In this document: piece after piece, positions 1,976 through 32,975 of the stretch
Layout of the letters: each line of letters opens with the position of its first letter
Numbering within the stretch: the first letter of the stretch is position 1
Origin: Firmicutes bacterium CAG:170
GTDB lineage: Bacteria; Bacillota; Clostridia; Oscillospirales; Oscillospiraceae
Reading direction: 5' to 3'
Length of the DNA: 53,919 nt
NCBI GenBank assembly: GCA_000436735.1
Contig: FR887093.1
Coordinates: forward strand, 1-53,919
The notes under the pieces: model-generated
What the model was told of the DNA's origin: nothing
The model's database searches: none
What the model saw: the letters and a program-made list of their open reading frames with translations, nothing else
Made by a program: the position numbers and the translations under genes

Positions 1976-2269
1976 ATGAAAATTCAGATTGAAGCCGAAC
2001 TGTCCAATTACATCGAATCCCTGCATTATGACCGTAATTCCATTCAGGAGCTGCTGCTCATGGCGGCAAAGCAGGGCTTGAAGGACACCGACGCATACAA
2101 CGCATGGATGAAGGACTACCTCGGCAAGAGCAAGGAATACGAGATCGCAAAAGCGACGCTGGAACGTGAGTTTATCATTCCTGCCGTCGGCAATGCAGCG
2201 GTTGACTGGGTGCTTGATTTCTCGACCGCCACGGTGACGGTGACGCCGCGGGAGCAGACCGATGACTAG
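1976..2269 (+). CDS. Small accessory protein of a CXXX-repeat peptide modification system
   Basis: 97 aa with GGAGGA RBS, overlapping the rSAM start. Helical body with C-terminal WVLDFSTATV, resembling the CXXX-repeat-associated family as I recall it. Confidence 0.55.
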   Translation: MKIQIEAELSNYIESLHYDRNSIQELLLMAAKQGLKDTDAYNAWMKDYLGKSKEYEIAKATLEREFIIPAVGNAAVDWVLDFSTATVTVTPREQTDD

Positions 2270-3578
2270 GCCACAGGAAACCTTCACCGATATGCTGGCG
2301 CGGCTTTTCCCCATGCCGGGTATCCAGCTTGGCATCAACTCGCCGCACTCCAAGTGCATTACATTTCAGGTGACGGAAGACTGCAACCTGCGCTGCAGCT
2401 ACTGCTATCAGGGCTGCAAGACGCACCGGAAGATGTCGCTTGAAACCGCCAAGGCCGCCGTCGATATGCTGCTCGCCGCAGACGAGCGGACAAATCAGTA
2501 CATCACGTCCACGGAGGTTGCCGGGGTCGTTCTTGACTTTATCGGCGGTGAGCCGCTGCTGGAAGTCGAGCTGATCGACCAGATCCTCGACTACTTCGTG
2601 GCGCAGACCTTCCGCCTGCATCATCCATGGGCGACGCGCTGGAAAGCGTCGATGTCCACAAACGGAACGCTGTACTTCCGCCCGGAGGTACAGCGGTTTT
2701 TGGATAAGTGGGCAAAGCACCTGTCGCTCTCCATCAGCATTGACGGAGATAAGCAGCTCCACGATTCCTGCCGCGTCTTCCCGGACGGCTCTGGCAGCTA
2801 TGATCTTGCTATCGCGGCCGCGAAGGATTACATGACCAAGGGAAACGCCCTTGGCTCGAAGATGACGATTGCTCCCGGCAACGTCGATTATCTGTACCAC
2901 GCAGTAATCGGTCTGCTGGACGCGGGGTATCGGGCGATCAATCTGAACTGCGTTTACGAAAAGGGCTGGACGCTCGACAATGCGGCTACACTCTACACAC
3001 AGCTCAAACGGCTCGCCGATTTCGTCCTGCTCTCGGACGAGCAGCCGTATCTGTCGATCTTCAGCGAAAGCATCGGCCATCCGCTTCCGGAGGACGATAA
3101 TCAGAACTGGTGCGGCGGTACGGGGCTTATGCTGGCGGTTGACTGCGATGGCCTGTTCTTCCCGTGCCTGCGCTACATGGGAACCTCCCTCGGCCATGAG
3201 CAGCGGCCCTATACCATCGGCGATCTGGAACACGGCATCAACGTTCTTCCGGAACATCGGGCGCGGGTGGCAGAAATGGCCGCAGTCACGCGGCGCAGCC
3301 AGTCCACCGACGAATGCTTTGCGTGCCCGATCGCGTCCGGCTGCTCTTGGTGCAGCGCGTACAACTACCAATGCACAGGGACTCCGGATAAGCGCGTGAC
3401 GTACATCTGCCCGATGCACAAGGCCCGCGTCCTGGCGAACGCCTACTACTGGAACAATCTGTACCGAAAACGCGGCGACACCGCACGTTACCGGTTGGAT
3501 ATTCCGGACGCATGGGCGCTTGAAATCATCCCCTATGCAGAGCTGTCAATACTCAAATCAATCTCCAAGGAGGGCTGA
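2262..3578 (+). CDS. Radical SAM/SPASM peptide maturase, CXXX-repeat target type
   Basis: [16 protein letters not shown] (CX3CX2C), [22 protein letters not shown] cysteines [29 protein letters not shown]. Confidence 0.92.
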
Positions 3579-3580
3579 GT

Positions 3581-4303
3581 ATGGCATATATCGAGGCCGA
3601 ACGCTTCGCCGAATTGAAAGCGCGTGTCAAGGCCGAGTGCCTGCGGCGCTGCCATACCGGATCTGTTGCGGAATACGGCGGCGAAAAATACGAATACACG
3701 AACAGCCCCACCGAAGATCACACGGTCGATGTGGAGCACTACGAAAAGCTGGCACTTCCTCTGTCGAAGATCCACAGCGAGAAAGTGCCGAGCCTCGACG
3801 GCCGCAGAATCGTGTTTGACGAGGACATCACCGAGTTTGAAGCAGCGTTGACCCTCTTTGAAACACGCCCCATGACGGACAAGACGCGGGGTGACTGCGA
3901 AACTTCCTGCACGGGTGCTTGCTACACCGGCTGCTCTGGCGACTGCACAGGCGGCTGCGAAACAACGTGCTCCGGAGAGTGTCAAGGTTCCTGCACCGGC
4001 TGCGGAAGTGGCTGTGCGAACACCTGCGAAGGCTCCTGCTCCGGCGGCTGCTATGGCTGCGGCGGCAACTGCACGGGAGGCTGCTCTGGCTCCTGTGATG
4101 GTAGCTGCTCTGGTTGCTCTGGTTCCTGTTCTGGCGGCTGTTCCAGCAGTTGTTCTGGCGGCTGCAAATCGTCCTGCACAGTGACCTGCGGCAACACTGG
4201 CTGCGTCGGCTCGTGCCTTGGCCTTTGTTCTGCCGGCTGCACGACTTCGTGCCAGACGTCCTGCGGCTATTGCGGCACAAACTGCACAGCCGTATCGAAG
4301 TAA
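3581..4303 (+). CDS. Cys-rich CXXX-repeat protein, putative rSAM substrate
   Basis: About 105-aa N-terminal domain followed by 34 Cys in mostly C-x3 spacing with G/S/T fillers; starts 2 nt after the rSAM stop. Confidence 0.88.
3896..4290 (+). repeat. Degenerate 12-nt (CXXX codon) tandem repeat
   Basis: Recurrent TGC/TGT every 4 (sometimes 3 or 5) codons, e.g. TGCTCTGGCTCC-like units. Confidence 0.8.
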
Positions 4304-4315
4304 GGAGGTAGCCCT

Positions 4316-4864
4316 TTGGAAATTGCAAGTAAATACGAAATTGCTGCGGCGAACCTTGCAATCGCTTTACAGACGGACACGGTTTCCGTCGAGCAGCGAA
4401 GTGAGCTGCGAGCGGCAATCGGCAGCAGCATCGACAAACTCGTCGACGCGCTCAACATGATTATCGTCTGCTACAACAAGCGAATGTACGCTGGCGAGAT
4501 CGCGCCCGAAAAAGCCGCAAAGTGCGTCAAGGCAGAATACGCCGCCATCGGCCTTTCCAACGTGGTCGCATACGATTATTTCTCCGCGGCGGTCGGCGCG
4601 TTCTTCACGCGCAAAACCCTGATGGCGCTGTCGACCGATGAAAAGCTCGCGTGGGTGAAAACAATCTTCGAGCAGAACGAACGCTGCGGCTGTCAGCGCG
4701 TCAAAGACGCTCTGTTCATCTACTGCTTGCGGCTGCTGTCTCACATGGGCATCGTCACGGCGGATCTCTCTTTCACGAACCTTGTCATGCGTGAGATCAA
4801 CGCCATCACGGAAGACCGAAAGAACGCCGCGATCATGCCGCAGGCGCTCGTCACAGAATTGTAA
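4316..4864 (+). CDS. Hypothetical helical protein (last gene of the rSAM cluster)
   Basis: 182 aa, TTG start after AAGGAGGT RBS; no recognised motif. Confidence 0.6.
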   Translation: MEIASKYEIAAANLAIALQTDTVSVEQRSELRAAIGSSIDKLVDALNMIIVCYNKRMYAGEIAPEKAAKCVKAEYAAIGLSNVVAYDYFSAAVGAFFTRKTLMALSTDEKLAWVKTIFEQNERCGCQRVKDALFIYCLRLLSHMGIVTADLSFTNLVMREINAITEDRKNAAIMPQALVTEL

Positions 4865-4875
4865 GGGGTGATCGT

Positions 4876-5919
4876 ATGGCAGTAGAAAACGTAAATTCCA
4901 AGCCGATTGCCGCCTCTGCGGCAATTGCCGACTTTATCCTCGCATCGATCGGCGGCAAGGTACGCCGTGTTCCGATCAGCACCCTTGCTGAAACGCTCAC
5001 CGACGCCGAAGTTGAGCTTATCAGCGCCGCTGCGTCCGCGCTGGTGTCGGCTGCGGGCAGAGCCTGCTATATCGGCGAAAATGAAAACTGGTACGTGTGG
5101 GATGGCGCACAGGGCGCATTTGTCGATTCAGGCTATCCATCGCGCGGCACGCAGGGCAATCCTGGCGTAATCTTTACGCCACACGTGACCGACGCCGGTA
5201 TTCTGAGCTGGACGAACGACGGCGGTCTTCCGAATCCGGAGCCCGTGAGCCTGCTCGGACCCGCGGGCGGTGTAACTTCGTTCAATAACCGCTCCGGTGC
5301 AGTTATTCCGAAAAACGGCGACTATACCGCAGCGATGGTCGGAGCGGAAAAGAAAGACGCCGTCAAGAATCACAACGAGTCCGAGGCCGCACACAAAGCC
5401 CTGTTCGACGCGAAACTGAATACGGACGGCGACGGCGGCACTCTGAAACCCACCTTCACGCAGTCCGCGACGCGAACGCAGCTCGAATCCGGTCTGGAAA
5501 TGAAAGTCCTTCTCGGTCGCATTATGAAGTGGCTTGCGGATCTCGGAACAGCCGCGTTCAAAGATTCCAACAACTTTGAATCGAAAGGCGCTGGTTCGTC
5601 CGCAGTTACCGCGCACAACACCGCTGCGCAGGCCCACGCTGACCTGTTTGCAAAAAAAGCCGGCAAGGGCATCGCGTTCACGCTCACACTTTCTGTCGCA
5701 GGATGGTCGAACCTTGCACAGACGCTGGAAGACGCGCGCTTCCTTGACGCCGAGTATGCCTATATCGTGACGCCGACGGCCGACAGCCTCACGGCGTGGG
5801 GCGACGCAGGAATCCGCGTCGGTGACGTTACGGAGAACGGCAAAATGCCGTTTACCTGCACAGATACGCCGGCAAGCGCAATCACAGTAAATATTTACAG
5901 AGCGGAGGTCGCACAATGA
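4876..5919 (+). CDS. Tail fibre-associated protein
   Basis: NWYVWDG..VDSG..GTQGNPG, LSWTNDGGLPNPEPV, VTSFNNRSGAV and HN..AH repeats typical of fibre proteins. Confidence 0.7.
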   Translation: MAVENVNSKPIAASAAIADFILASIGGKVRRVPISTLAETLTDAEVELISAAASALVSAAGRACYIGENENWYVWDGAQGAFVDSGYPSRGTQGNPGVIFTPHVTDAGILSWTNDGGLPNPEPVSLLGPAGGVTSFNNRSGAVIPKNGDYTAAMVGAEKKDAVKNHNESEAAHKALFDAKLNTDGDGGTLKPTFTQSATRTQLESGLEMKVLLGRIMKWLADLGTAAFKDSNNFESKGAGSSAVTAHNTAAQAHADLFAKKAGKGIAFTLTLSVAGWSNLAQTLEDARFLDAEYAYIVTPTADSLTAWGDAGIRVGDVTENGKMPFTCTDTPASAITVNIYRAEVAQ

Positions 5920-7787
5920 GCAAAGTATTTCAGATGCTCGGCGGAAGCGGCGGCAGTATCAAGCTCGCGTCCATTGAGATCACAACGCCGCCCACAAAGA
6001 CCGCCTACAAGGCTGGTGAGCAGTTTTCGACGGCTGGCATGATTGTCAAGGCGACGTATTCCAACGGCGCCACGCTGATTGCAACAGGCGTTTCGGTCGA
6101 GCCGAGCGGCGGTCTGGAAGCAGGCCGCACCAGCGTCACGATCCGCTACACCGAGGGCGGCGTTTCCTGCACCGCGACGCAGGCCGTCACCGTCACCAAG
6201 ACGAACGTGACCGTGCCGAGCCAGAGCGGCAGCCTGACGTATTCGGGCAGCTCTCAAAGCCCGGCGTGGTACAACTACGATGCGGCAAAGATGACGCTCG
6301 GCGGCACGACCAGCGGCACGAACGCCGGCACATACAGCGCAAAATTTACGCTGAAAGATACGGCGCTCTACCAGTGGGCAGACGGCACGACGGTGCCGAA
6401 AACTGTCTCGTGGAAGATCGGCAAAGCGGATGGCTCACTGACGCTCAGCAAGACTTCGATCAAGCTGGAAGACGGAAAGCTGACAGATTCTTTCACGGTC
6501 ACACGGCTTGGCACAGGAACAATCACAGCCGTGTCCAACCGCCCCGATATTGCCAGTGTTTCCATTTCGGGAAATATTGTGACCGTCCACAGCGTCGATG
6601 AAAACTCCGGCACGGTTACGATCACGGTTTCCGTTGCCAGCGACACGAACTACAACGCGCCGGCAAGCAAGACCTGCACCGTGTCGTGCGTGTTCGTGAC
6701 AATCTTCGGCGTCTGCTGGACGTACAGCAACTCCTCTCCGGCTCTTTCCCGCCTGACGCCGAGCAACGACCCGAACGGCTATGTCAATGCCGCCGTGTCC
6801 TCGGAGCCGAGCGCGGCCATCGGCACAGGCGCTGGCAGCTCGCCGTTTGATGATTTCATGCCGTGGCAGGGCATGGAAGAATACAACATCATCAACGGCG
6901 CGGTGTCGTACAAGAAAGGCCAGTCCGGATTCTCCCGCACGTCCTACGATACGATGGTCTTTATCCCTGAGTTTTACTACAAGATCGTCTATAACAGCAG
7001 CCAGAGCAAGATCTATTACTACGTTGCAAACGCGCCGTTCACCGGCTTTGCCAAGCACCCCGGTTCCGGTCGCTATGTTGGACGATACAATACGATCTCC
7101 GGCTATGCTTCCAAATCTGGCGCAAATCCACTGACAAACATCACACGCGCCACAGCCCGCACAAACTCCCGGAAAAAGGGCAGCAAGTGGCAGCAGTACG
7201 ATTATGCGTCGTGGTGCGCGGTCTGGCTGCTCTATCTCGTCGAGTATGCAAACTGGGACAGCCAGAGCAAGATCGGCAACGGTATTGTCGGCAATTCCTC
7301 GCTGCAGAAGACGGGTACGACGGACAGCATGACCTACCACACCGGCACGGTCGCTTCCGCCAGGACAGGCTATGGCGGCGTACAGTATCGCGGCATTGAA
7401 AACCCGTGGGGCAATGTCTATGACTGGATTGACGGCATCAACTTCAACAACCGTGCGGCTTATATCTGCACCGATCCGTCGAAGTACGCAGACGATACGT
7501 CCACCAACTACACGGCGGCTGGGCTCAGCCTGCCGAGCAGCGGCAATATCAAAACGCTCGGAAACTGCACGGCCCTCCCATGGGCATTTATTCCGACGGG
7601 AACCGGTGGCAGCGGCACGACCTACGTGCCAGACTACGTGAGCTCGAATTCTGGCTGGTGTGTTCTCTGCGTCGGCGGCTACTGCAGGAATGATGCTGCG
7701 TACTGCGGCCTGTTCTTTTTCAATGGCTTCTACTATTCGTCCTACGCGTACTCGAACATCGGCGCGCGCCTCCTTTACGTCCCCTAA
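5916..7787 (+). CDS. DGR target: Ig-like domains plus C-terminal CLec-type receptor-binding domain
   Basis: N-terminal bacterial Ig-like (SIEITTPPTKTAYKAGEQF..VKATYSNG); GIENPWGNVYDW; ends SNIGARLLYVP; VR at its 3' end. Confidence 0.9.
   Translation: MSKVFQMLGGSGGSIKLASIEITTPPTKTAYKAGEQFSTAGMIVKATYSNGATLIATGVSVEPSGGLEAGRTSVTIRYTEGGVSCTATQAVTVTKTNVTVPSQSGSLTYSGSSQSPAWYNYDAAKMTLGGTTSGTNAGTYSAKFTLKDTALYQWADGTTVPKTVSWKIGKADGSLTLSKTSIKLEDGKLTDSFTVTRLGTGTITAVSNRPDIASVSISGNIVTVHSVDENSGTVTITVSVASDTNYNAPASKTCTVSCVFVTIFGVCWTYSNSSPALSRLTPSNDPNGYVNAAVSSEPSAAIGTGAGSSPFDDFMPWQGMEEYNIINGAVSYKKGQSGFSRTSYDTMVFIPEFYYKIVYNSSQSKIYYYVANAPFTGFAKHPGSGRYVGRYNTISGYASKSGANPLTNITRATARTNSRKKGSKWQQYDYASWCAVWLLYLVEYANWDSQSKIGNGIVGNSSLQKTGTTDSMTYHTGTVASARTGYGGVQYRGIENPWGNVYDWIDGINFNNRAAYICTDPSKYADDTSTNYTAAGLSLPSSGNIKTLGNCTALPWAFIPTGTGGSGTTYVPDYVSSNSGWCVLCVGGYCRNDAAYCGLFFFNGFYYSSYAYSNIGARLLYVP
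7636..7771 (+). repeat. DGR variable repeat (VR)
   Basis: 136-nt gapless match to 8016-8151 with 8 mismatches, all opposite A in the TR. Confidence 0.96.
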
Positions 7788-7892
7788 TGGGGGACCGGGG
7801 GCCGCAGCCCCCGTGGGCTTCCGTTTTCAGAGCGGCACGTTTTACGCTCTGGCGCGGCAGCGCCATTCCCTATATATCCGCGCGAAGCGCGG
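7779..7892 (+). promoter_or_regulatory. GC-rich hairpins downstream of VR (putative DGR homing elements)
   Basis: GTCCCC-TAATG-GGGGAC (7779-7795), CGGGGGC-CGCA-GCCCCCG (7796-7813) and CCGCGC-GAA-GCGCGG (7878-7892). Confidence 0.65.
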
Positions 7893-8015
7893 CGCGTATA
7901 TTTTTTCAAAATAACGCATTTCGTTATTTTCTCCCGTTTTCAGACCTTCTCAGCGCATAGACAGTATAATTCTCGACGGGATTGCCTGCGCAGCTTGTGC
8001 GGTGCTTTGGGCTTC

Positions 8016-8151
8016 ACGTGAACTCGAATTCTGGCTGGTGTGTTCTCTGCGTCGGCGGCTACTACAGGAATGATGCTGCGAACTGCGGCCTGTTCTTTTT
8101 CAATGGCAACTACAATTCGTCCAACGCGAACTCGAACATCGGCGCGCGCCT
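8016..8151 (+). ncRNA. DGR template repeat (TR)
   Basis: Copy of VR with ten AAC/AAT codons in the target frame, just upstream of the RT. Confidence 0.93.
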
Positions 8152-8285
8152 ACTTGTTTGTATGCTCCATTTTTTGCGCAGGCTCTCCCTCACCGCTTGG
8201 TGGAAATATTGCCGCTACAGGACGGGCTCTAGTACGGCCGAAAGGTATCTGGAAAGACCCCGATGGCAAACAAGGAGCGAGGCAT

Positions 8286-9383
8286 ATGCCAAAAAGAAAA
8301 GGATTCCTGTATGAATGGATGTGTGACAAAGAACACATCCGCGAAGCCATTGTGTTTGGCGCGAAAGACAAACACGATCGGCGTGACGTAAGACGGGTGC
8401 TGGCCGACGTGGACGGCTTCACGGACCGCGTCTATGATCTTCTGCAGACGCAGACTTTCACCCCGGCCCAGCCGAAGAAGCGCAAGATCTTCGACAACAG
8501 CAGCCGAAAGTGGAGAGAGATCGAATACGTTCCGTTCTTCCCCGACGGCATTGTCCACACGTTGATGGTCTTGGCGGCGGCGCCGGTCTTCCTGCGCGGG
8601 ATGAATTACTGGTGCTGCGCATCAGTACCGGGACGCGGCGGAAAGCACGCGCTTCGGCGCTGCAAGCGTGTCATTCACCACGACAAAAAAGGAAGCCGGT
8701 ACGTCTGCAAAATGGACGTTCACCACTTCTACCATTCTGTCGACCGCCGCAAGCTGATCTGGATGCTGGCGCACAAGATCAAGGACAAGAAGTATCTAAA
8801 GCTGACGTGGGAGATCCTGCAAACCTGCGAACAGGGGCTGGCCATTGGCTTTTTCATCTGCCAGTGGCTCGCAAATTTCTATCTTGAGCCGCTCGACCGT
8901 TACATTACGACGCTCGACGGTGTGAAGTACAGCGTGCGATACATGGATGATATTGTCCTCTTTGGCCCGAACAAAAAGAAGCTACACCGTGCGCGGAAAG
9001 CGATTGCCGAGTATCTGCAAAAGCGGCTGCGGCTGCAGATGAAAGGTAACTGGCAGGTGTTCCCCTTAAAAGCACGGCCGCTGGATTACGTCGGGTATCG
9101 CTTTTACCGCGATTATACTACCATGCGCCGAAAAAACTTCCTGCGCTTTACGCGCCAATGCCGCAAGGTGCGCAAGAAGATCGAGCGTCACCAGCGGATC
9201 GCGTATCGGACGGCATCGGGGCTTTTGAGCCGGATCGGCCAGCTCAAGCATTGCAATTCCGCTGCGGCGCGGAAAAAGTATGTTGACCCCATCGGGGTAC
9301 GAATCTTGAAGGAGGTTGTGCGAAATGAAAGTAAGAGGCGACAATGCGCCGGCAAATGCGTTCTCGCTGGAGGAGCAGCCTGA
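8286..9383 (+). CDS. DGR reverse transcriptase
   Basis: MPKRKG start after AAGGAG; KMDVHHFYHSV, GLAIGFFICQWLANFYL, VRYMDD and LDYVGY motifs. Confidence 0.95.
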   Translation: MPKRKGFLYEWMCDKEHIREAIVFGAKDKHDRRDVRRVLADVDGFTDRVYDLLQTQTFTPAQPKKRKIFDNSSRKWREIEYVPFFPDGIVHTLMVLAAAPVFLRGMNYWCCASVPGRGGKHALRRCKRVIHHDKKGSRYVCKMDVHHFYHSVDRRKLIWMLAHKIKDKKYLKLTWEILQTCEQGLAIGFFICQWLANFYLEPLDRYITTLDGVKYSVRYMDDIVLFGPNKKKLHRARKAIAEYLQKRLRLQMKGNWQVFPLKARPLDYVGYRFYRDYTTMRRKNFLRFTRQCRKVRKKIERHQRIAYRTASGLLSRIGQLKHCNSAAARKKYVDPIGVRILKEVVRNESKRRQCAGKCVLAGGAA

Positions 9384-10422: not shown

Positions 10423-10764
10423 ATGGAATACAACATTACCACCATCATTCAGGCGGTATTTGCGCTGATCGCAGCAGTCATTACCGTCATTGTCATTCCG
10501 TACATCAAGAGCAAGACCACAGCCCAGCAGCAGGCAGAAATCAACGCATGGGTGAAGATTGCCGTATCTGCCGCAGAGCAGATTTACAACGGCTCCGGTC
10601 GCGGTCCTGAGAAGAAAGCGTATGTCTTGGAATGGCTCAGGCAGCGCGGCATTACGGTTGACGAAGCCAAACTGGACGCTATGATCGAGTCCGCCGTTTA
10701 TGAATTGAAAAGCGGCGTTTTGGCTGTCGGTGAGCTTTCGACCTCCGGGGGCGACGAAACATGA
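10423..10764 (+). CDS. Phage holin, LL-H-like
   Basis: N-terminal TM; AVSAAEQIY..GPEKKAYV..IESAVYE motif. Confidence 0.85.
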   Translation: MEYNITTIIQAVFALIAAVITVIVIPYIKSKTTAQQQAEINAWVKIAVSAAEQIYNGSGRGPEKKAYVLEWLRQRGITVDEAKLDAMIESAVYELKSGVLAVGELSTSGGDET

Positions 10765-11864: not shown

Positions 11865-11910
11865 AAACCCCTCGCATGGCAGAAGTGTCATGTGAGGGGT
11901 TTTCTTTTTT
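11865..11910 (+). terminator. Intrinsic terminator ending the late operon
   Basis: AAACCCCTCGCATGGCA-GAAG-TGTCATGTGAGGGGTTT followed by a T-tract. Confidence 0.85.
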
Positions 11911-16169: not shown

Positions 16170-16206
16170 AAAAAGAGGCAGACGCATCAAACGTCTGCCT
16201 CTTTTT
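16170..16206 (-). terminator. Bidirectional intrinsic terminator at the integrase stop
   Basis: AAAAAGAGGCAGACG-N7-CGTCTGCCTCTTTTT. Confidence 0.8.
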
Positions 16207-17833
16207 TGCTGCATGGCAACGGACAAAGAAATACGAACCCAAATGCGGTGATGCGGATTTCTCCGTCGCCGTATTGCGTTCGTATAACTCTCTTATGGTG
16301 GAGCTCAAGAGAGTCTGTACGAACGTCCGAGGCATTACTTTCGTTTTCTGCTTTGCTCGTCAATTCTTCCAGCGAATATGAGAATTTGTGTTTGCCGGGC
16401 GTATGGTAGTAGTCGATCTGAATGCGGTCATCCCAAAGCGTCACCGATTTTACGAACGTGTCGATCAGCTTCTTTTGGTGCTCCTTGCTTCCGACGTTTC
16501 CCTCGCGCATCTGCTCCAGCGAGAAAACAACTCGTTCGCGTTCTATCGGCTGTGACGCTGCCTTTGCTATGGACAATGAACGCTCCAGATCGTGTATCGT
16601 TCCCTCGACTTCAAGCAGCCGGGCCTTGGTCGTTTCCGTGATGATTCCCTGTTCGATTGCCGCCATGATATTCTTCGCAACCTTGCGATTATCAGCCAGA
16701 TCGCGTTCGAGCTGAGCAACGCCCGATTCCCTCCGTGCCATGGCCTGAAAGCTCATGGTGCTGTCTGCAATCCACTCGATTGTATCGTCCTGCAAGATGT
16801 AATCCTGCGTCAGACGCGCGATCAACTTTTCAATGAAGTCGCGGCGCACGTTCTTCTTCTCACATCGGCCCTCTGCGTGACGCTTCTGGCATTGGTAGTA
16901 ATTATGCACGGTTCCGTTCTCCCCGGTGCCAGATACACCGATCATGTAGGAGCCGCAATAGCCGCAGAACAGCTTCCCTGTAAGCAGATATTCTCCGTTT
17001 GCCGACCGCCGCCCGGCGGTCTTTTTCTTGTTCGTAAGCTTTTCCTGCACGGCCTCGAAGACCTCCTTATCCAGAATCGGCGGGATTCCATCTTCAACAA
17101 CAACACCTGAATGGCGGTAAACGCCGATGTAGTTATCGTTTTTCAGTAGGATATGAAAGCTGTTCTTATTCCAGTCGCGCCCCAGCTTCGTCCGTATTCC
17201 GCGCTGGTTGAGCGAACGCGCGATCTCTGCAAGCGGAATGTCTTTAAGAACGCTGTCATAAATCTCTCTGACAACAGCAGCTTCATCAGCGGCGATGGCA
17301 TACTTCCCATCCTCGCCCTTAACATAGCCGAGCGGGAGCATTCCGTTCACCTTGCACTCTATAGCATTATCCACCATCCCGCGCTTGATGTCCTCGCCCA
17401 TGTTTTCGGAATAGAACTGGTTGACATTCATCATCGTCCGCAGCGCAAAGCGACCTGCGGCGGTGTTGCCAAATTCCTCTTTGGCATATAAGGTCTTGAT
17501 TCCGAACGAATCCAGCTTCGCTTCATACTGCAAAGCGTTCAGCATATTGCGGGCAATACGGTTGCTTTTGTACGCGACAACGATCTGGAAGTGCCGTTTC
17601 TCCGCATCGCGCATCATGCGCTGGAAGTTCGGACGTCGGTCAGAGCGACCGGACACTGCCTTGTCTGCATAAATGCCGATGATTCTGATTCCGTTCTTTT
17701 CGGCAAACTCCGTGCATTCAGCGATCTGCTGCTCAATGCTTTCTTCTTTCTGGTTGTGCGAAGAATAGCGGGCGTAAATCACGCCGATCTGTTCAGCGGG
17801 CGCGTATTCAATTTTCTTCGCTGAACGTGCCAT
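16187..17833 (-). CDS. Large serine recombinase (phage integrase)
   Basis: IYARYSS catalytic Ser, DKAVSG..RPNFQRM, recombinase domain, LFCGYCG..YYQC zinc ribbon, coiled coil. Confidence 0.95.
   Translation of the reverse strand: MARSAKKIEYAPAEQIGVIYARYSSHNQKEESIEQQIAECTEFAEKNGIRIIGIYADKAVSGRSDRRPNFQRMMRDAEKRHFQIVVAYKSNRIARNMLNALQYEAKLDSFGIKTLYAKEEFGNTAAGRFALRTMMNVNQFYSENMGEDIKRGMVDNAIECKVNGMLPLGYVKGEDGKYAIAADEAAVVREIYDSVLKDIPLAEIARSLNQRGIRTKLGRDWNKNSFHILLKNDNYIGVYRHSGVVVEDGIPPILDKEVFEAVQEKLTNKKKTAGRRSANGEYLLTGKLFCGYCGSYMIGVSGTGENGTVHNYYQCQKRHAEGRCEKKNVRRDFIEKLIARLTQDYILQDDTIEWIADSTMSFQAMARRESGVAQLERDLADNRKVAKNIMAAIEQGIITETTKARLLEVEGTIHDLERSLSIAKAASQPIERERVVFSLEQMREGNVGSKEHQKKLIDTFVKSVTLWDDRIQIDYYHTPGKHKFSYSLEELTSKAENESNASDVRTDSLELHHKRVIRTQYGDGEIRITAFGFVFLCPLPCSKKEADV
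16277..16325. other. Putative attP
   Basis: Imperfect inverted repeat CGTTCGTATAACTCTCTT / AAGAGAGTCTGTACGAACG around core ATGGTGGAGCTC. Confidence 0.65.
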
Positions 17834-31533: not shown

Positions 31534-31856
31534 TTGCGGATATACGCCATGGTATCTATTTGCACGTAATTGTACGTAATTGCACGCAATTAAATTTTGT
31601 CGCACGGCGTGGTGCTTTCATGTCCGCAGACAATATGCTAGTATTAGACTCGTAAAATTCCAAATCAAGCCGGGCGGCGCTCCTGATCGGGGGGCGCTGC
31701 TCATTTTATTCGGAAGGAGGACTTGCCTCCACGATGCTCCTTGCGTGGAGGATGGCTCGGACCTGCGGCGTATCGCCAACGCTGCCGGCTGCGGGTACAT
31801 CGAAAAAAAGGAGGAAACCCTATGTTGCTCACATGAGCGGCGCGGGGTCGGCAGCA

Positions 31857-32975
31857 ATGATCTACTTGCAAAACAACGTATTCGATGAAGCATTGGAACG
31901 GCTGCGGATGATCTTCGACGGCCACGACGATGTGATCGTCAGCATGTCCGGCGGCAAGGACAGTACAGTTCTTTTCCGCATGGCGCTTATGGTTGCGCAG
32001 GAGCGCGGGCGTCTGCCGCTCAAGGTATTCTGGCTCGATCAGGAAGCTGAGTGGCAAGCGACGGTGGACTATATGCAGCACATCATGGAGCTGCCGGAAG
32101 TCACGCCGTACTGGTATCAGATCCCCTTTGAATTCACAAACACGCTCTCCCCGGAGAAGAATTTCATCAGTGTTTGGAATCCGGAGGACAAAGCGATCTG
32201 GATTCACCCGCAGCACCCGCTCTCCATCAAGGAAAACCCCAGCAGCGAAAACCGATTCCATGAGCTTGTCAACGTCCTCCCGTCCTACTGCACCGATTCT
32301 GAGAATTGTGCCGTGCTGGTGGGAATGCGCATGACGGAAAGCCTGAACCGGCGCGTTGCTATCACGCAGCATGAAGCCCGATACAAAGGCGTGACGTGGT
32401 GCAAGAAGAAAGTTGGCAGGTGTCAGGTGTTCTGGCCGATCTACGATTTCACCAACGATGACATCTGGACAGCCATTGCCAAGAATCACTGGGCATACAA
32501 TCGCGTCTACGATCTGCAATACCAGTGGGGCTTGGCCAAGGAGGCCATGCGCGTCTCAGCGCTCATCCACGAAACCGCCTGGCACTCGATTGAAATGCTG
32601 CAGGAGTTTGAGCCGGACACCTACAACAAGTTCATCCGTCGCGTATCTGGCGTCGGTACATTCGCCCATACCTTTGACAGCGGTGACATCATCCCGCGCC
32701 AGCTCCCCTTTGCGTTCCGTTCGTGGCAGGAATACCGCGACTATCTGCTTGCCAATATCGTGAAGCCCGAATACCACGAGCTGTTCCGAAACCGCTGGAA
32801 GAATCAGACCGGAGACGAATGGTATCGTGTCCATGTCAAAGAGATCGTCCTGAATGATATTGATGGCACGAACAACGCAAATGCCCGCTCCCGTTTCCGC
32901 ATCCGGGAAAAGGCTCCCACCTATCGCAAACGCGACGCCGCGCAGTTTGAGCAATATATGGGCAGCAAGAAATGA
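31857..32975 (+). CDS. PAPS-reductase-family (IbrA-like) protein
   Basis: NVFDEALERL, SMSGGKDS PP-loop, WLDQEAE, VGMRMTESLNR, PIYDFTNDDIW, MRVS. Alternative start at 31833. Confidence 0.88.
   Translation: MIYLQNNVFDEALERLRMIFDGHDDVIVSMSGGKDSTVLFRMALMVAQERGRLPLKVFWLDQEAEWQATVDYMQHIMELPEVTPYWYQIPFEFTNTLSPEKNFISVWNPEDKAIWIHPQHPLSIKENPSSENRFHELVNVLPSYCTDSENCAVLVGMRMTESLNRRVAITQHEARYKGVTWCKKKVGRCQVFWPIYDFTNDDIWTAIAKNHWAYNRVYDLQYQWGLAKEAMRVSALIHETAWHSIEMLQEFEPDTYNKFIRRVSGVGTFAHTFDSGDIIPRQLPFAFRSWQEYRDYLLANIVKPEYHELFRNRWKNQTGDEWYRVHVKEIVLNDIDGTNNANARSRFRIREKAPTYRKRDAAQFEQYMGSKK

Follow-up and report, generated by a model that had tools for sequence, protein, structure and literature searches.

Why should a phage carry a radical S-adenosylmethionine (rSAM) enzyme and a protein built largely of cysteine repeats amongst the genes for its tail fibres? 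The question is raised by positions 1976-4864 of a 53,919-nucleotide stretch of DNA from Firmicutes bacterium CAG:170 (GenBank assembly GCA_000436735.1, contig FR887093.1), which makes up a complete contig in a genome of 191 contigs and 2.46 Mb and is referred to here as the window. An initial annotation, made from the letters alone, had described four genes lying on the same strand between two tail-fibre genes, separated by gaps of 18 nt or less or overlapping, and its coordinates proved exact. On the + strand these encode, in order, a 97-aa accessory protein (1976-2269), a 438-aa rSAM/SPASM enzyme (2262-3578), a 240-aa Cys-repeat protein that is the putative substrate (3581-4303) and a 182-aa protein with a TTG start (4316-4864). 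They are preceded by a + strand gene for a 349-aa tail-fibre protein (908-1957), which matches phrog_2163 (1e-52) and the tail-fibre family phrog_7037 (3e-22), and are followed by a second fibre-like gene, fib347 (4876-5919); the successive junctions from the first fibre gene to the second are an 18-nt gap, an 8-nt overlap and gaps of 2, 12 and 11 nt. We place at about even chances the reading that this cassette makes a thioether-stapled Cys-rich protein that works with or on the upstream tail fibre, the thioether chemistry being argued by analogy.

The enzyme, its Cys-repeat partner and their neighbours

By its sequence, the enzyme is a true member of NCBIfam TIGR04115 (rSAM peptide maturase, CXXX-repeat target), a family known from bioinformatics. 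It scores 473.8 bits against a cut-off of 350 (E 4e-142; 474.3 bits in the genome search), with a match that covers positions 2-359 of the 359 in the profile, and it also falls in phrog_1802. The family membership that had been proposed for it thus stands, and the family numbers named with it, TIGR04114-04116, come close (TIGR04115 for the enzyme, TIGR04114 for the target repeat, TIGR04116 for the accessory), although TIGR04119, which belongs to the same set, is absent here. The next matches, to PapB (NF047865), CcpM, the QHNDH maturase and the SCIFF maturase, lie far under their own cut-offs: 180.8 bits against 340 for the PapB-type family and 102.3 against 425 for the SCIFF/CteB family TIGR03974, with the CrpC-type family TIGR04463 at 68.1 against 525. 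PapB, CcpM, the SCIFF maturase and CteB are thioether-forming maturases.

The CX3CX2C motif lies at Cys41/45/48, within CNLRCSYC, and nine further cysteines occupy the C-terminal part of the protein (284, 295, 302, 352, 355, 361, 364, 371 and 383). Pfam Radical_SAM and Fer4_12 both match the enzyme; the SPASM region is recognised from the sequence itself together with the match to TIGR04115 over its full length, and the nearest solved relative is CteB (5WGG/5WHY; E 1e-20). Because none of 300 other sampled genomes of the host's order contains a protein above the TIGR04115 cut-off, the gene belongs to the phage and is no staple of its host. In two divergent viral lineages the TIGR04115-like gene is interrupted by an intein (L108, 6581-8971; L113, 8039-10117), which sits just ahead of the third Cys of CX3CX2C (...C..C.Y/CLTGD...HN/CYQG..., with slashes at its borders); in L108 this gives a 796-aa open reading frame (ORF) that also matches an intein-containing rSAM model and DnaB-intein regions.

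The putative substrate contains 36 Cys, so that the 34 first counted for the whole protein are those of its core (residues 106-235) only; the other two form a single CXXXC in the N-domain (residues 1-105, nt 3581-3895). The CXXX register described for these cysteines is upheld, as 28 of the 33 core spacings are CXXXC, with four CXXC and one CXXXXC, and the whole protein contains 29 CXXXC where 10,000 shuffles of the core gave a maximum of 15. The 130-aa core is composed of little else than Cys (34), Gly (33), Ser (25) and Thr (17). The Pfam label precomputed for the protein is PF27846, entered in the Atlas as tSAM_targ_Cxxx_rpt with the description "modification target Cys-rich repeat". The NCBIfam repeat models stay under cut-off on it (TIGR04114 at 10.1 bits against 20; TIGR04117 at E 0.21), its sole phrog match is phrog_6085, a family of unknown function (E 1.6e-5), and a search of PDB sequences with the substrate profile returned nothing meaningful. 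Read by eye only, the N-terminus is charged and has neither the RR motif nor the hydrophobic stretch of a twin-arginine translocation (Tat) or other export signal.

When a profile of the N-domain was used in a full HMMER scan, the matches at E <= 1e-3 made up a family of 479 clusters (50% identity). Of the 150 best, 114 have a tail of at least 40 residues, and that tail is Cys-rich in 102 of the 114, the other 12 including out-of-frame readings and chimeras; a single match fuses the N-domain to a longer protein, which is probably a gene-calling fusion. On this sequence evidence, N-domain and Cys-rich tail form one coherent family. Within it the length of the core varies, since near-identical phages encode in-frame repeat-number variants of 171, 210 and 240 aa with identical N-domains, the 210-aa form occurring on 37 contigs. 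This may be either a real repeat-number polymorphism or a collapse in assembly. At the DNA level, the window holds short tandem repeats with periods of 33, 12 and 9 at 3896-4300.

The 97-aa accessory protein matches no family hidden Markov model (HMM), with no hit to TIGR04116 at E <= 10, and a Pfam scan of its family found nothing. One of the 12 members of that family does match the TIGR04116 HMM (E 0.011); an hhalign comparison of the family with a true TIGR04116 member gave E 5e-4 and a probability of 31% over 84 collinear columns that span the full length; and the two have in common a C-terminal W-x-[LI]-[DN]-F motif. The accessory would therefore be, at best, a very distant relative of TIGR04116 (CXXX_rpt_assoc). 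The best PDB sequence match of its profile, the MecI winged helix (E 0.008), is a faint lead only. Members of the accessory family occur in all 12 divergent loci examined, in five of which the rSAM ORF bears the accessory as an N-terminal fusion, and the enzyme N-terminus is where other maturases of RiPPs (peptides made by the ribosome and then modified post-translationally) carry their recognition element. The accessory is likely to be the substrate-recognition partner of the maturase.

For the 182-aa protein, AlphaFold 2 predicts an all-alpha structure of eleven helices with a mean pLDDT (predicted local distance difference test) score of 92.8. Fold searches with this model revealed a generic likeness to helical repeats only (best E 0.06 with Foldseek against PDB; best Z 7.8 with VIA), and BFVD returned only the protein's own relative. 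The family is present in eight of the 12 divergent loci, while in the remainder an unrelated protein of 170-200 aa holds the position; when hhalign compared the family with the proteins that hold this position in L056, L108 and L103, no relation was shown (E 0.24-0.52). In two lineages the family is doubled in tandem, with paralogues of about 180 aa following the Cys-rich gene (L043, 8741-9817; L046, 8748-9826).

Linkage of the cassette to a fibre C-terminal motif

The cassette lies between the baseplate and the holin/lysis genes, in the late structural operon and on the strand of the late tail genes, in keeping with the placement first suggested for it. A GGAGG-like site precedes four of the five starts from the accessory gene through fib347, the rSAM start, which overlaps the accessory gene, being the one that lacks it. 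The initial annotation had seen no promoter, terminator, transporter or peptidase here. In a consensus scan the + strand at 1976-4864 showed no sigma-70-like site, and scans of family libraries yielded no peptidase or transporter match among the eight proteins scanned; the consensus scan does list two terminator-like hairpins inside the rSAM ORF (2345-2357 and 2668-2695). As evidence both hairpins are weak: the scan over-calls in this DNA, listing 28 in 12 kb where shuffled sequences gave 11.8 +/- 3.8. The second, on the rSAM coding strand, consists of a 12-bp stem and then GTTTTTGG, and may be due to chance or act as an internal attenuator.

In IMG/VR we found 22 loci of the same phage, with rSAM identities of 89-100%. 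The four genes keep the same order in 19 of these, and the other three loci end at a contig edge inside the rSAM gene. A search with the P2-I-like tail protein (tail-I) encoded at 243-911 showed the cassette in 18 of 18 close relatives (tail-I identity of at least 96%, at least 4.3 kb downstream) and in none of 15 phages with a more distant tail-I (29-52% identity). What the cassette follows is the fibre and not the baseplate type. Pairwise comparison of the window with three relatives gave ratios of nonsynonymous to synonymous substitution (dN/dS) of 0.01-0.15 across all four genes, indicating strong purifying selection. The values for the Cys-rich protein are 0.012-0.057, its N-domain and core (0-0.065) both being constrained, and compare with about 0.03 for the baseplate protein.

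A scan with the substrate alignment added 13 viral loci in which the substrate is 33-66% identical. A TIGR04115-like gene adjoins the Cys-rich gene in all 13, although for one of them, L050, the Cys-rich gene was seen only in the motif-scan data described below. Two gene orders occur across the lineages: accessory, enzyme, substrate and unknown protein, or substrate, unknown protein, accessory and enzyme.

What these loci have in common upstream is the end of a fibre. The last ~45 residues of the 908-1957 gene product (about nt 1823-1954) form a conserved C-terminal motif, ...NLFWIDPTPVTGGLKYWNGTDWEHVPVAYS, with the consensus ...P..N(L/K)LWIDT...TGGLKYYNGS.W.HVPVAY, and the proteins encoded just upstream of the cassette, which range from 92 to 443 aa and are otherwise unrelated, resemble one another only in this stretch. 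When IMG/VR was scanned with the fibre motif alone, 55 viral loci were recovered, in all of which the motif ends 3-21 nt from the stop codon. Of those with at least 3 kb of downstream sequence, 42 of 44 carry a TIGR04115-like gene together with a Cys-rich gene; many of the loci are copies of the same phage, and the 42 represent about eight lineages whose rSAM enzymes are 43-100% identical to that of the window. The synteny survey that had been proposed thus speaks strongly for the initial interpretation, with one fibre motif followed from lineage to lineage.

In the two exceptions, L106 and L107, the motif is followed by another kind of repeat protein and a pair of other rSAM enzymes, so that an rSAM cassette with a repeat protein stands behind the fibre end in 44 of 44 loci. 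In these two (L106, 4358-8487; L107, 3889-8913) the repeat protein is 361-425 aa long and lacks Cys repeats, its repeat tail being rich in Gly, Ser, Asn, Asp and Thr; the rSAM enzymes, of about 450 aa each, exceed the cut-off of no curated family, and a 170-aa protein of unknown function is also present. An hhalign comparison of the substrate profile (N-domain plus Cys-rich core) with the L107 repeat protein showed no relation (E 0.12). A tblastn search of GenBank phages with the 60-aa fibre end gave no match at E <= 0.01, the query being short and the sensitivity low. A complex prediction combining three copies of the C-terminal 90 aa of the fibre with three copies of the substrate N-domain (score 0.01, mark 0.32) is evidence neither way.

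The same data bear on the possibility that the cassette is a moron, a passenger whose RiPP-like product (a bacteriocin, a signal or a metal chelator) is released at lysis or by the lysogen, to the advantage of phage or host, and has no role in the particle. Its RiPP-like gene content would suit such a passenger, as would a site just upstream of a diversity-generating retroelement (DGR) and the lysis genes, where accessory genes accumulate, and so would the change in the number of in-frame Cys repeats between near-identical phages (the 171-, 210- and 240-aa forms). However, the product would then be a 25-kDa protein with a conserved 105-aa N-domain, with no leader peptidase or exporter detected in the proteins scanned and no promoter-like site found inside the cassette by the consensus scan. 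Moreover, the cassette is fixed in its lineage (18/18) instead of being patchy, and is tied to one fibre C-terminal motif across lineages that differ in other tail genes. We regard a moron as decidedly unlikely. As between a virion appendage and a product set free at lysis, sequence data narrow the choice by genomic linkage only. A product acting with the fibre, or on it, seems to us likelier than a free RiPP because of its co-transfer with the fibre end, its place in the late operon, the lack of a detected peptidase or exporter, its fixation in the lineage and the strong constraint on its genes.

The phage genome around the cassette

Gene-by-gene annotation shows that the window encodes a complete temperate Oscillospiraceae myophage. 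The small and large terminase subunits, portal, protease and major head protein are all present, and the sheath, tube-region genes, tape measure and baseplate genes reach the 3' end of the window, the remainder of a baseplate-J-like ORF lying at its 5' end. Next come tail-I, the tail-fibre region and the DGR, followed by the holin at 10423, a probable lysin and a strong terminator-like hairpin (11865-11902). The lysogeny module that comes next runs leftward and holds repressors and a serine integrase (16187-17833), and the early genes follow it. The baseplate-J-like gene (phrog_6) contains both contig ends (1-250 and 52876-53919), which is what a circularly permuted assembly of an entire phage genome should give; the ends neither overlap nor join in frame, and a few bases may be missing.

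The DGR directly follows the cassette (5916-9383) and looks active. Its variable repeat (VR, 7636-7775) is the 3' end of the gene for a 623-aa tail protein (phrog_5302), its template repeat (TR) lies at 8016-8155, and the two are 94% identical, with an A in TR opposite another base in VR at all nine of the nine differences. The reverse transcriptase ORF (phrog_1423) extends to 9383; as the alignments to most relatives begin around residue 44 of the 8040 ORF, the true start probably lies close to that residue. In the early region, a PAPS-reductase-like gene (3'-phosphoadenosine-5'-phosphosulfate reductase; phrog_2302, 31734-32975) adjoins two ParB-like genes; we take this family in phages to be usually tied to DNA modification and not to sulfur metabolism.

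A temperate life style raises the possibility that the cassette serves lysogenic conversion or anti-defence from the prophage, for instance as a surface-modifying or superinfection-exclusion factor. The serine integrase and repressors would allow this, and a profile search of genome contigs found the same phage integrated in a 207-kb contig of an uncultured Oscillospiraceae metagenome-assembled genome. There is also a precedent for rSAM-matured repeat proteins acting in phage-host conflict, in that the HXS system matures an HxS-repeat effector (PMC13128918). Against such a role, the cassette is packed tightly among late tail genes on the same strand, a signal peptide is lacking in its substrate, and a role of this kind would leave the fibre-motif linkage without an explanation; we consider it highly improbable.

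Known relatives and a proposed function at the fibre end

The bacterial CXXX-repeat system is defined bioinformatically by a TIGR04114/04117 target together with TIGR04115, TIGR04116 and TIGR04119. A complete classical version is encoded by a 6.8-kb GenBank record filed as 'Bacteriophage sp.' (MT837480; L024), which has no phage genes and looks, from its gene content, like a bacterial-type locus and not a viral one. There the Cys-repeat target begins ...RREFFKNAAKSVLPILG and has a twin-arginine signal, the enzymes are a TIGR04115 protein (630 bits) and a second SPASM maturase, TIGR04119 (235 bits), the 91-aa accessory is a TIGR04116 protein (105 bits), and two downstream ORFs were read, by eye only, as TatA and TatC. 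The phage cassette resembles this system in its above-cut-off rSAM enzyme, its CXXX-repeat core rich in Gly, Ser and Thr, its PF27846 label and the accessory of about 90-100 aa beside the enzyme. It differs in that the phage target carries a conserved 105-aa cytoplasmic N-domain and no Tat signal, in that the accessory is only faintly TIGR04116-like by profile, and in that the second maturase is missing, there being no TIGR04119 match at E <= 0.01 in the 94%-complete genome that includes the window. In addition, the phage system has its phage-specific 182-aa protein and sits in a tail-fibre operon.

Amongst characterised enzymes, PapB of the freyrasin system and CteB of the SCIFF system are the best-scoring relatives, with the same rSAM/SPASM architecture and Cys-rich repeat substrates. 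Unlike these, the phage enzyme scores under the respective cut-offs, the substrate is a 240-aa protein and not a short peptide, and the Cys-X3-Asp pattern is not general in it. For the size of its substrate, the closest parallel is CrpC of Methanococcus voltae (TIGR04463), which puts ranthionine links on the 28.8-kDa Cys-rich protein CrpA (PMC13692751). Both pair an rSAM/SPASM enzyme with a protein-sized substrate in which an N-terminal recognition region is joined to C-terminal Cys repeats, and in both there is no evident protease or exporter (PMC13692751). Nevertheless, CrpC belongs to a different rSAM family and is archaeal and chromosomal, and phages do not figure in the paper's text (PMC13692751).

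In travelling with the C-terminal end of a fibre and passing between phages as one block, the cassette genes behave like the fibre modules P2 H/G, Mu S/U and T4/T2 gp37/gp38. Downstream partner genes in P2 H/G, Mu S/U, lambda stf/tfa and T4 and T2 gp37/gp38 co-transfer with the C-terminal end of the fibre, and such co-transfer is a recognised mark of fibre-specific partners, among them assembly chaperones and tip adhesins. We know of no P2, Mu, T4 or T2 fibre-partner module that includes an rSAM enzyme or a RiPP-like substrate, and phrog and fold searches found no sequence or fold similarity between modules of these types and the cassette.

This likeness lends itself to another explanation, namely that the Cys-rich protein is a cytoplasmic assembly factor, or a scaffold for a metal or Fe-S cluster, which helps to fold or mature the motif-bearing fibre and is then discarded in the manner of a chaperone, while the rSAM enzyme may act on the fibre itself. 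Classically, a gene straight after a fibre gene encodes a chaperone and co-transfers with the C-terminus of that fibre, and the same co-transfer is seen here; dense CXXXC arrays with Gly, Ser and Thr could be metal-binding; the bacterial homologue takes the Tat pathway, by which proteins are exported in folded form and often with a cofactor; and L106 and L107 pair the same motif with other rSAM enzymes and a Cys-free repeat protein, which implies that the constant partner is the fibre and not the cysteines. Set against this are the place of the enzyme in a clade of peptide maturases whose neighbours are their own substrates, the joint occurrence of N-domain and Cys-rich tail in the way of a leader and its core, and the constraint on the residues between the cysteines as well as on the cysteines themselves, as seen in the core dN/dS. 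On balance we judge such a scaffold unlikely.

Several observations nonetheless weigh against a stapled partner of the fibre. The chemistry is argued from relatives, as literature searches that left most subscription journals outside their coverage returned no paper on the chemistry of TIGR04114-04119 or of CXXX-repeat systems. The PapB-type Cys-X3-Asp/Glu spacing is not the rule in the core, where the residue at +4 from a Cys is mostly another Cys and which has only six Asp/Glu in all. The Tat export of the L024 homologue would also fit a cofactor- or metal-loaded protein in place of a cross-linked one. AlphaFold 2 models the 240-aa protein with a mean pLDDT of 38, and its N-domain, three helices predicted at low confidence, with 50-65. 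On the side of the linkage, the motif patterns were drawn from cassette-linked fibres and would miss more divergent fibres that lack a cassette, the motif is missing from the upstream fibre of one cassette lineage (L023/L056), and tail-fibre regions are common landing sites for morons. Finally, in GenBank phage records a close relative of the rSAM enzyme was found on two uncultured scaffolds only, and in no cultured phage.

Returning to the stapled protein as our preferred reading, we propose the following course of events. All cassette genes would be transcribed with the late tail genes, and the accessory would grip the substrate through its 105-aa N-domain. The enzyme would then cleave S-adenosylmethionine, and the resulting 5'-deoxyadenosyl radical would link the sulfurs of Cys residues with carbons close by in the CXXX repeats, producing a ladder of small thioether rings. 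Thioether links from Cys to nearby carbons are the likeliest chemistry judging by the family, and they are put forward as an analogy because no paper on the chemistry of TIGR04114-04119 was found. Since no protease would remove the N-domain, the product would stay a protein of ~25 kDa, and the N-domain would dock it onto the conserved C-terminal motif of the fibre. Most likely, then, the cassette product would be a component attached to the fibre, and otherwise an assembly partner specific to it; the former would presumably become part of the virion. Thioethers would provide a disulfide-like rigidity; a strict anaerobe could form them in its reducing cytoplasm, and they would withstand the gut lumen.

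A more far-reaching version, which we think possible but on the doubtful side, is that gut phages of anaerobes build a part of the fibre from an rSAM-stapled, RiPP-like protein as a redox-proof substitute for disulfides, with the N-domain plugged onto the fibre end, and that the second, unrelated cassette of L106 and L107 serves the same fibre end by acting on its Cys-free repeat protein. If so, there may be a wider, undescribed class of cross-linked virion appendages. As far as can be judged from sequence, what is new in the phage arrangement is a target with an N-domain, the lack of a second maturase and of an export signal, and the tie to a motif at the fibre end. This arrangement is widespread and, as far as our literature search reached, unpublished: the search found no rSAM enzymes in tail-fibre modules and no characterised phage example, in line with what had been suspected at the outset.

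RiPP-type chemistry has long been treated as a route to small secreted peptides, and its application to proteins is only now coming to be documented, in one archaeal case of 2026 (PMC13692751). If the function proposed here is correct, the cassette would provide the first enzymatically cross-linked virion or receptor-binding accessory, would explain how disulfide-like stability is reached in phages of strict anaerobes and would offer a tractable three-gene test system for the uncharacterised TIGR04115 family. As the family is large and is common in human-gut viromes, it would also bear on the host range and persistence of abundant gut phages.

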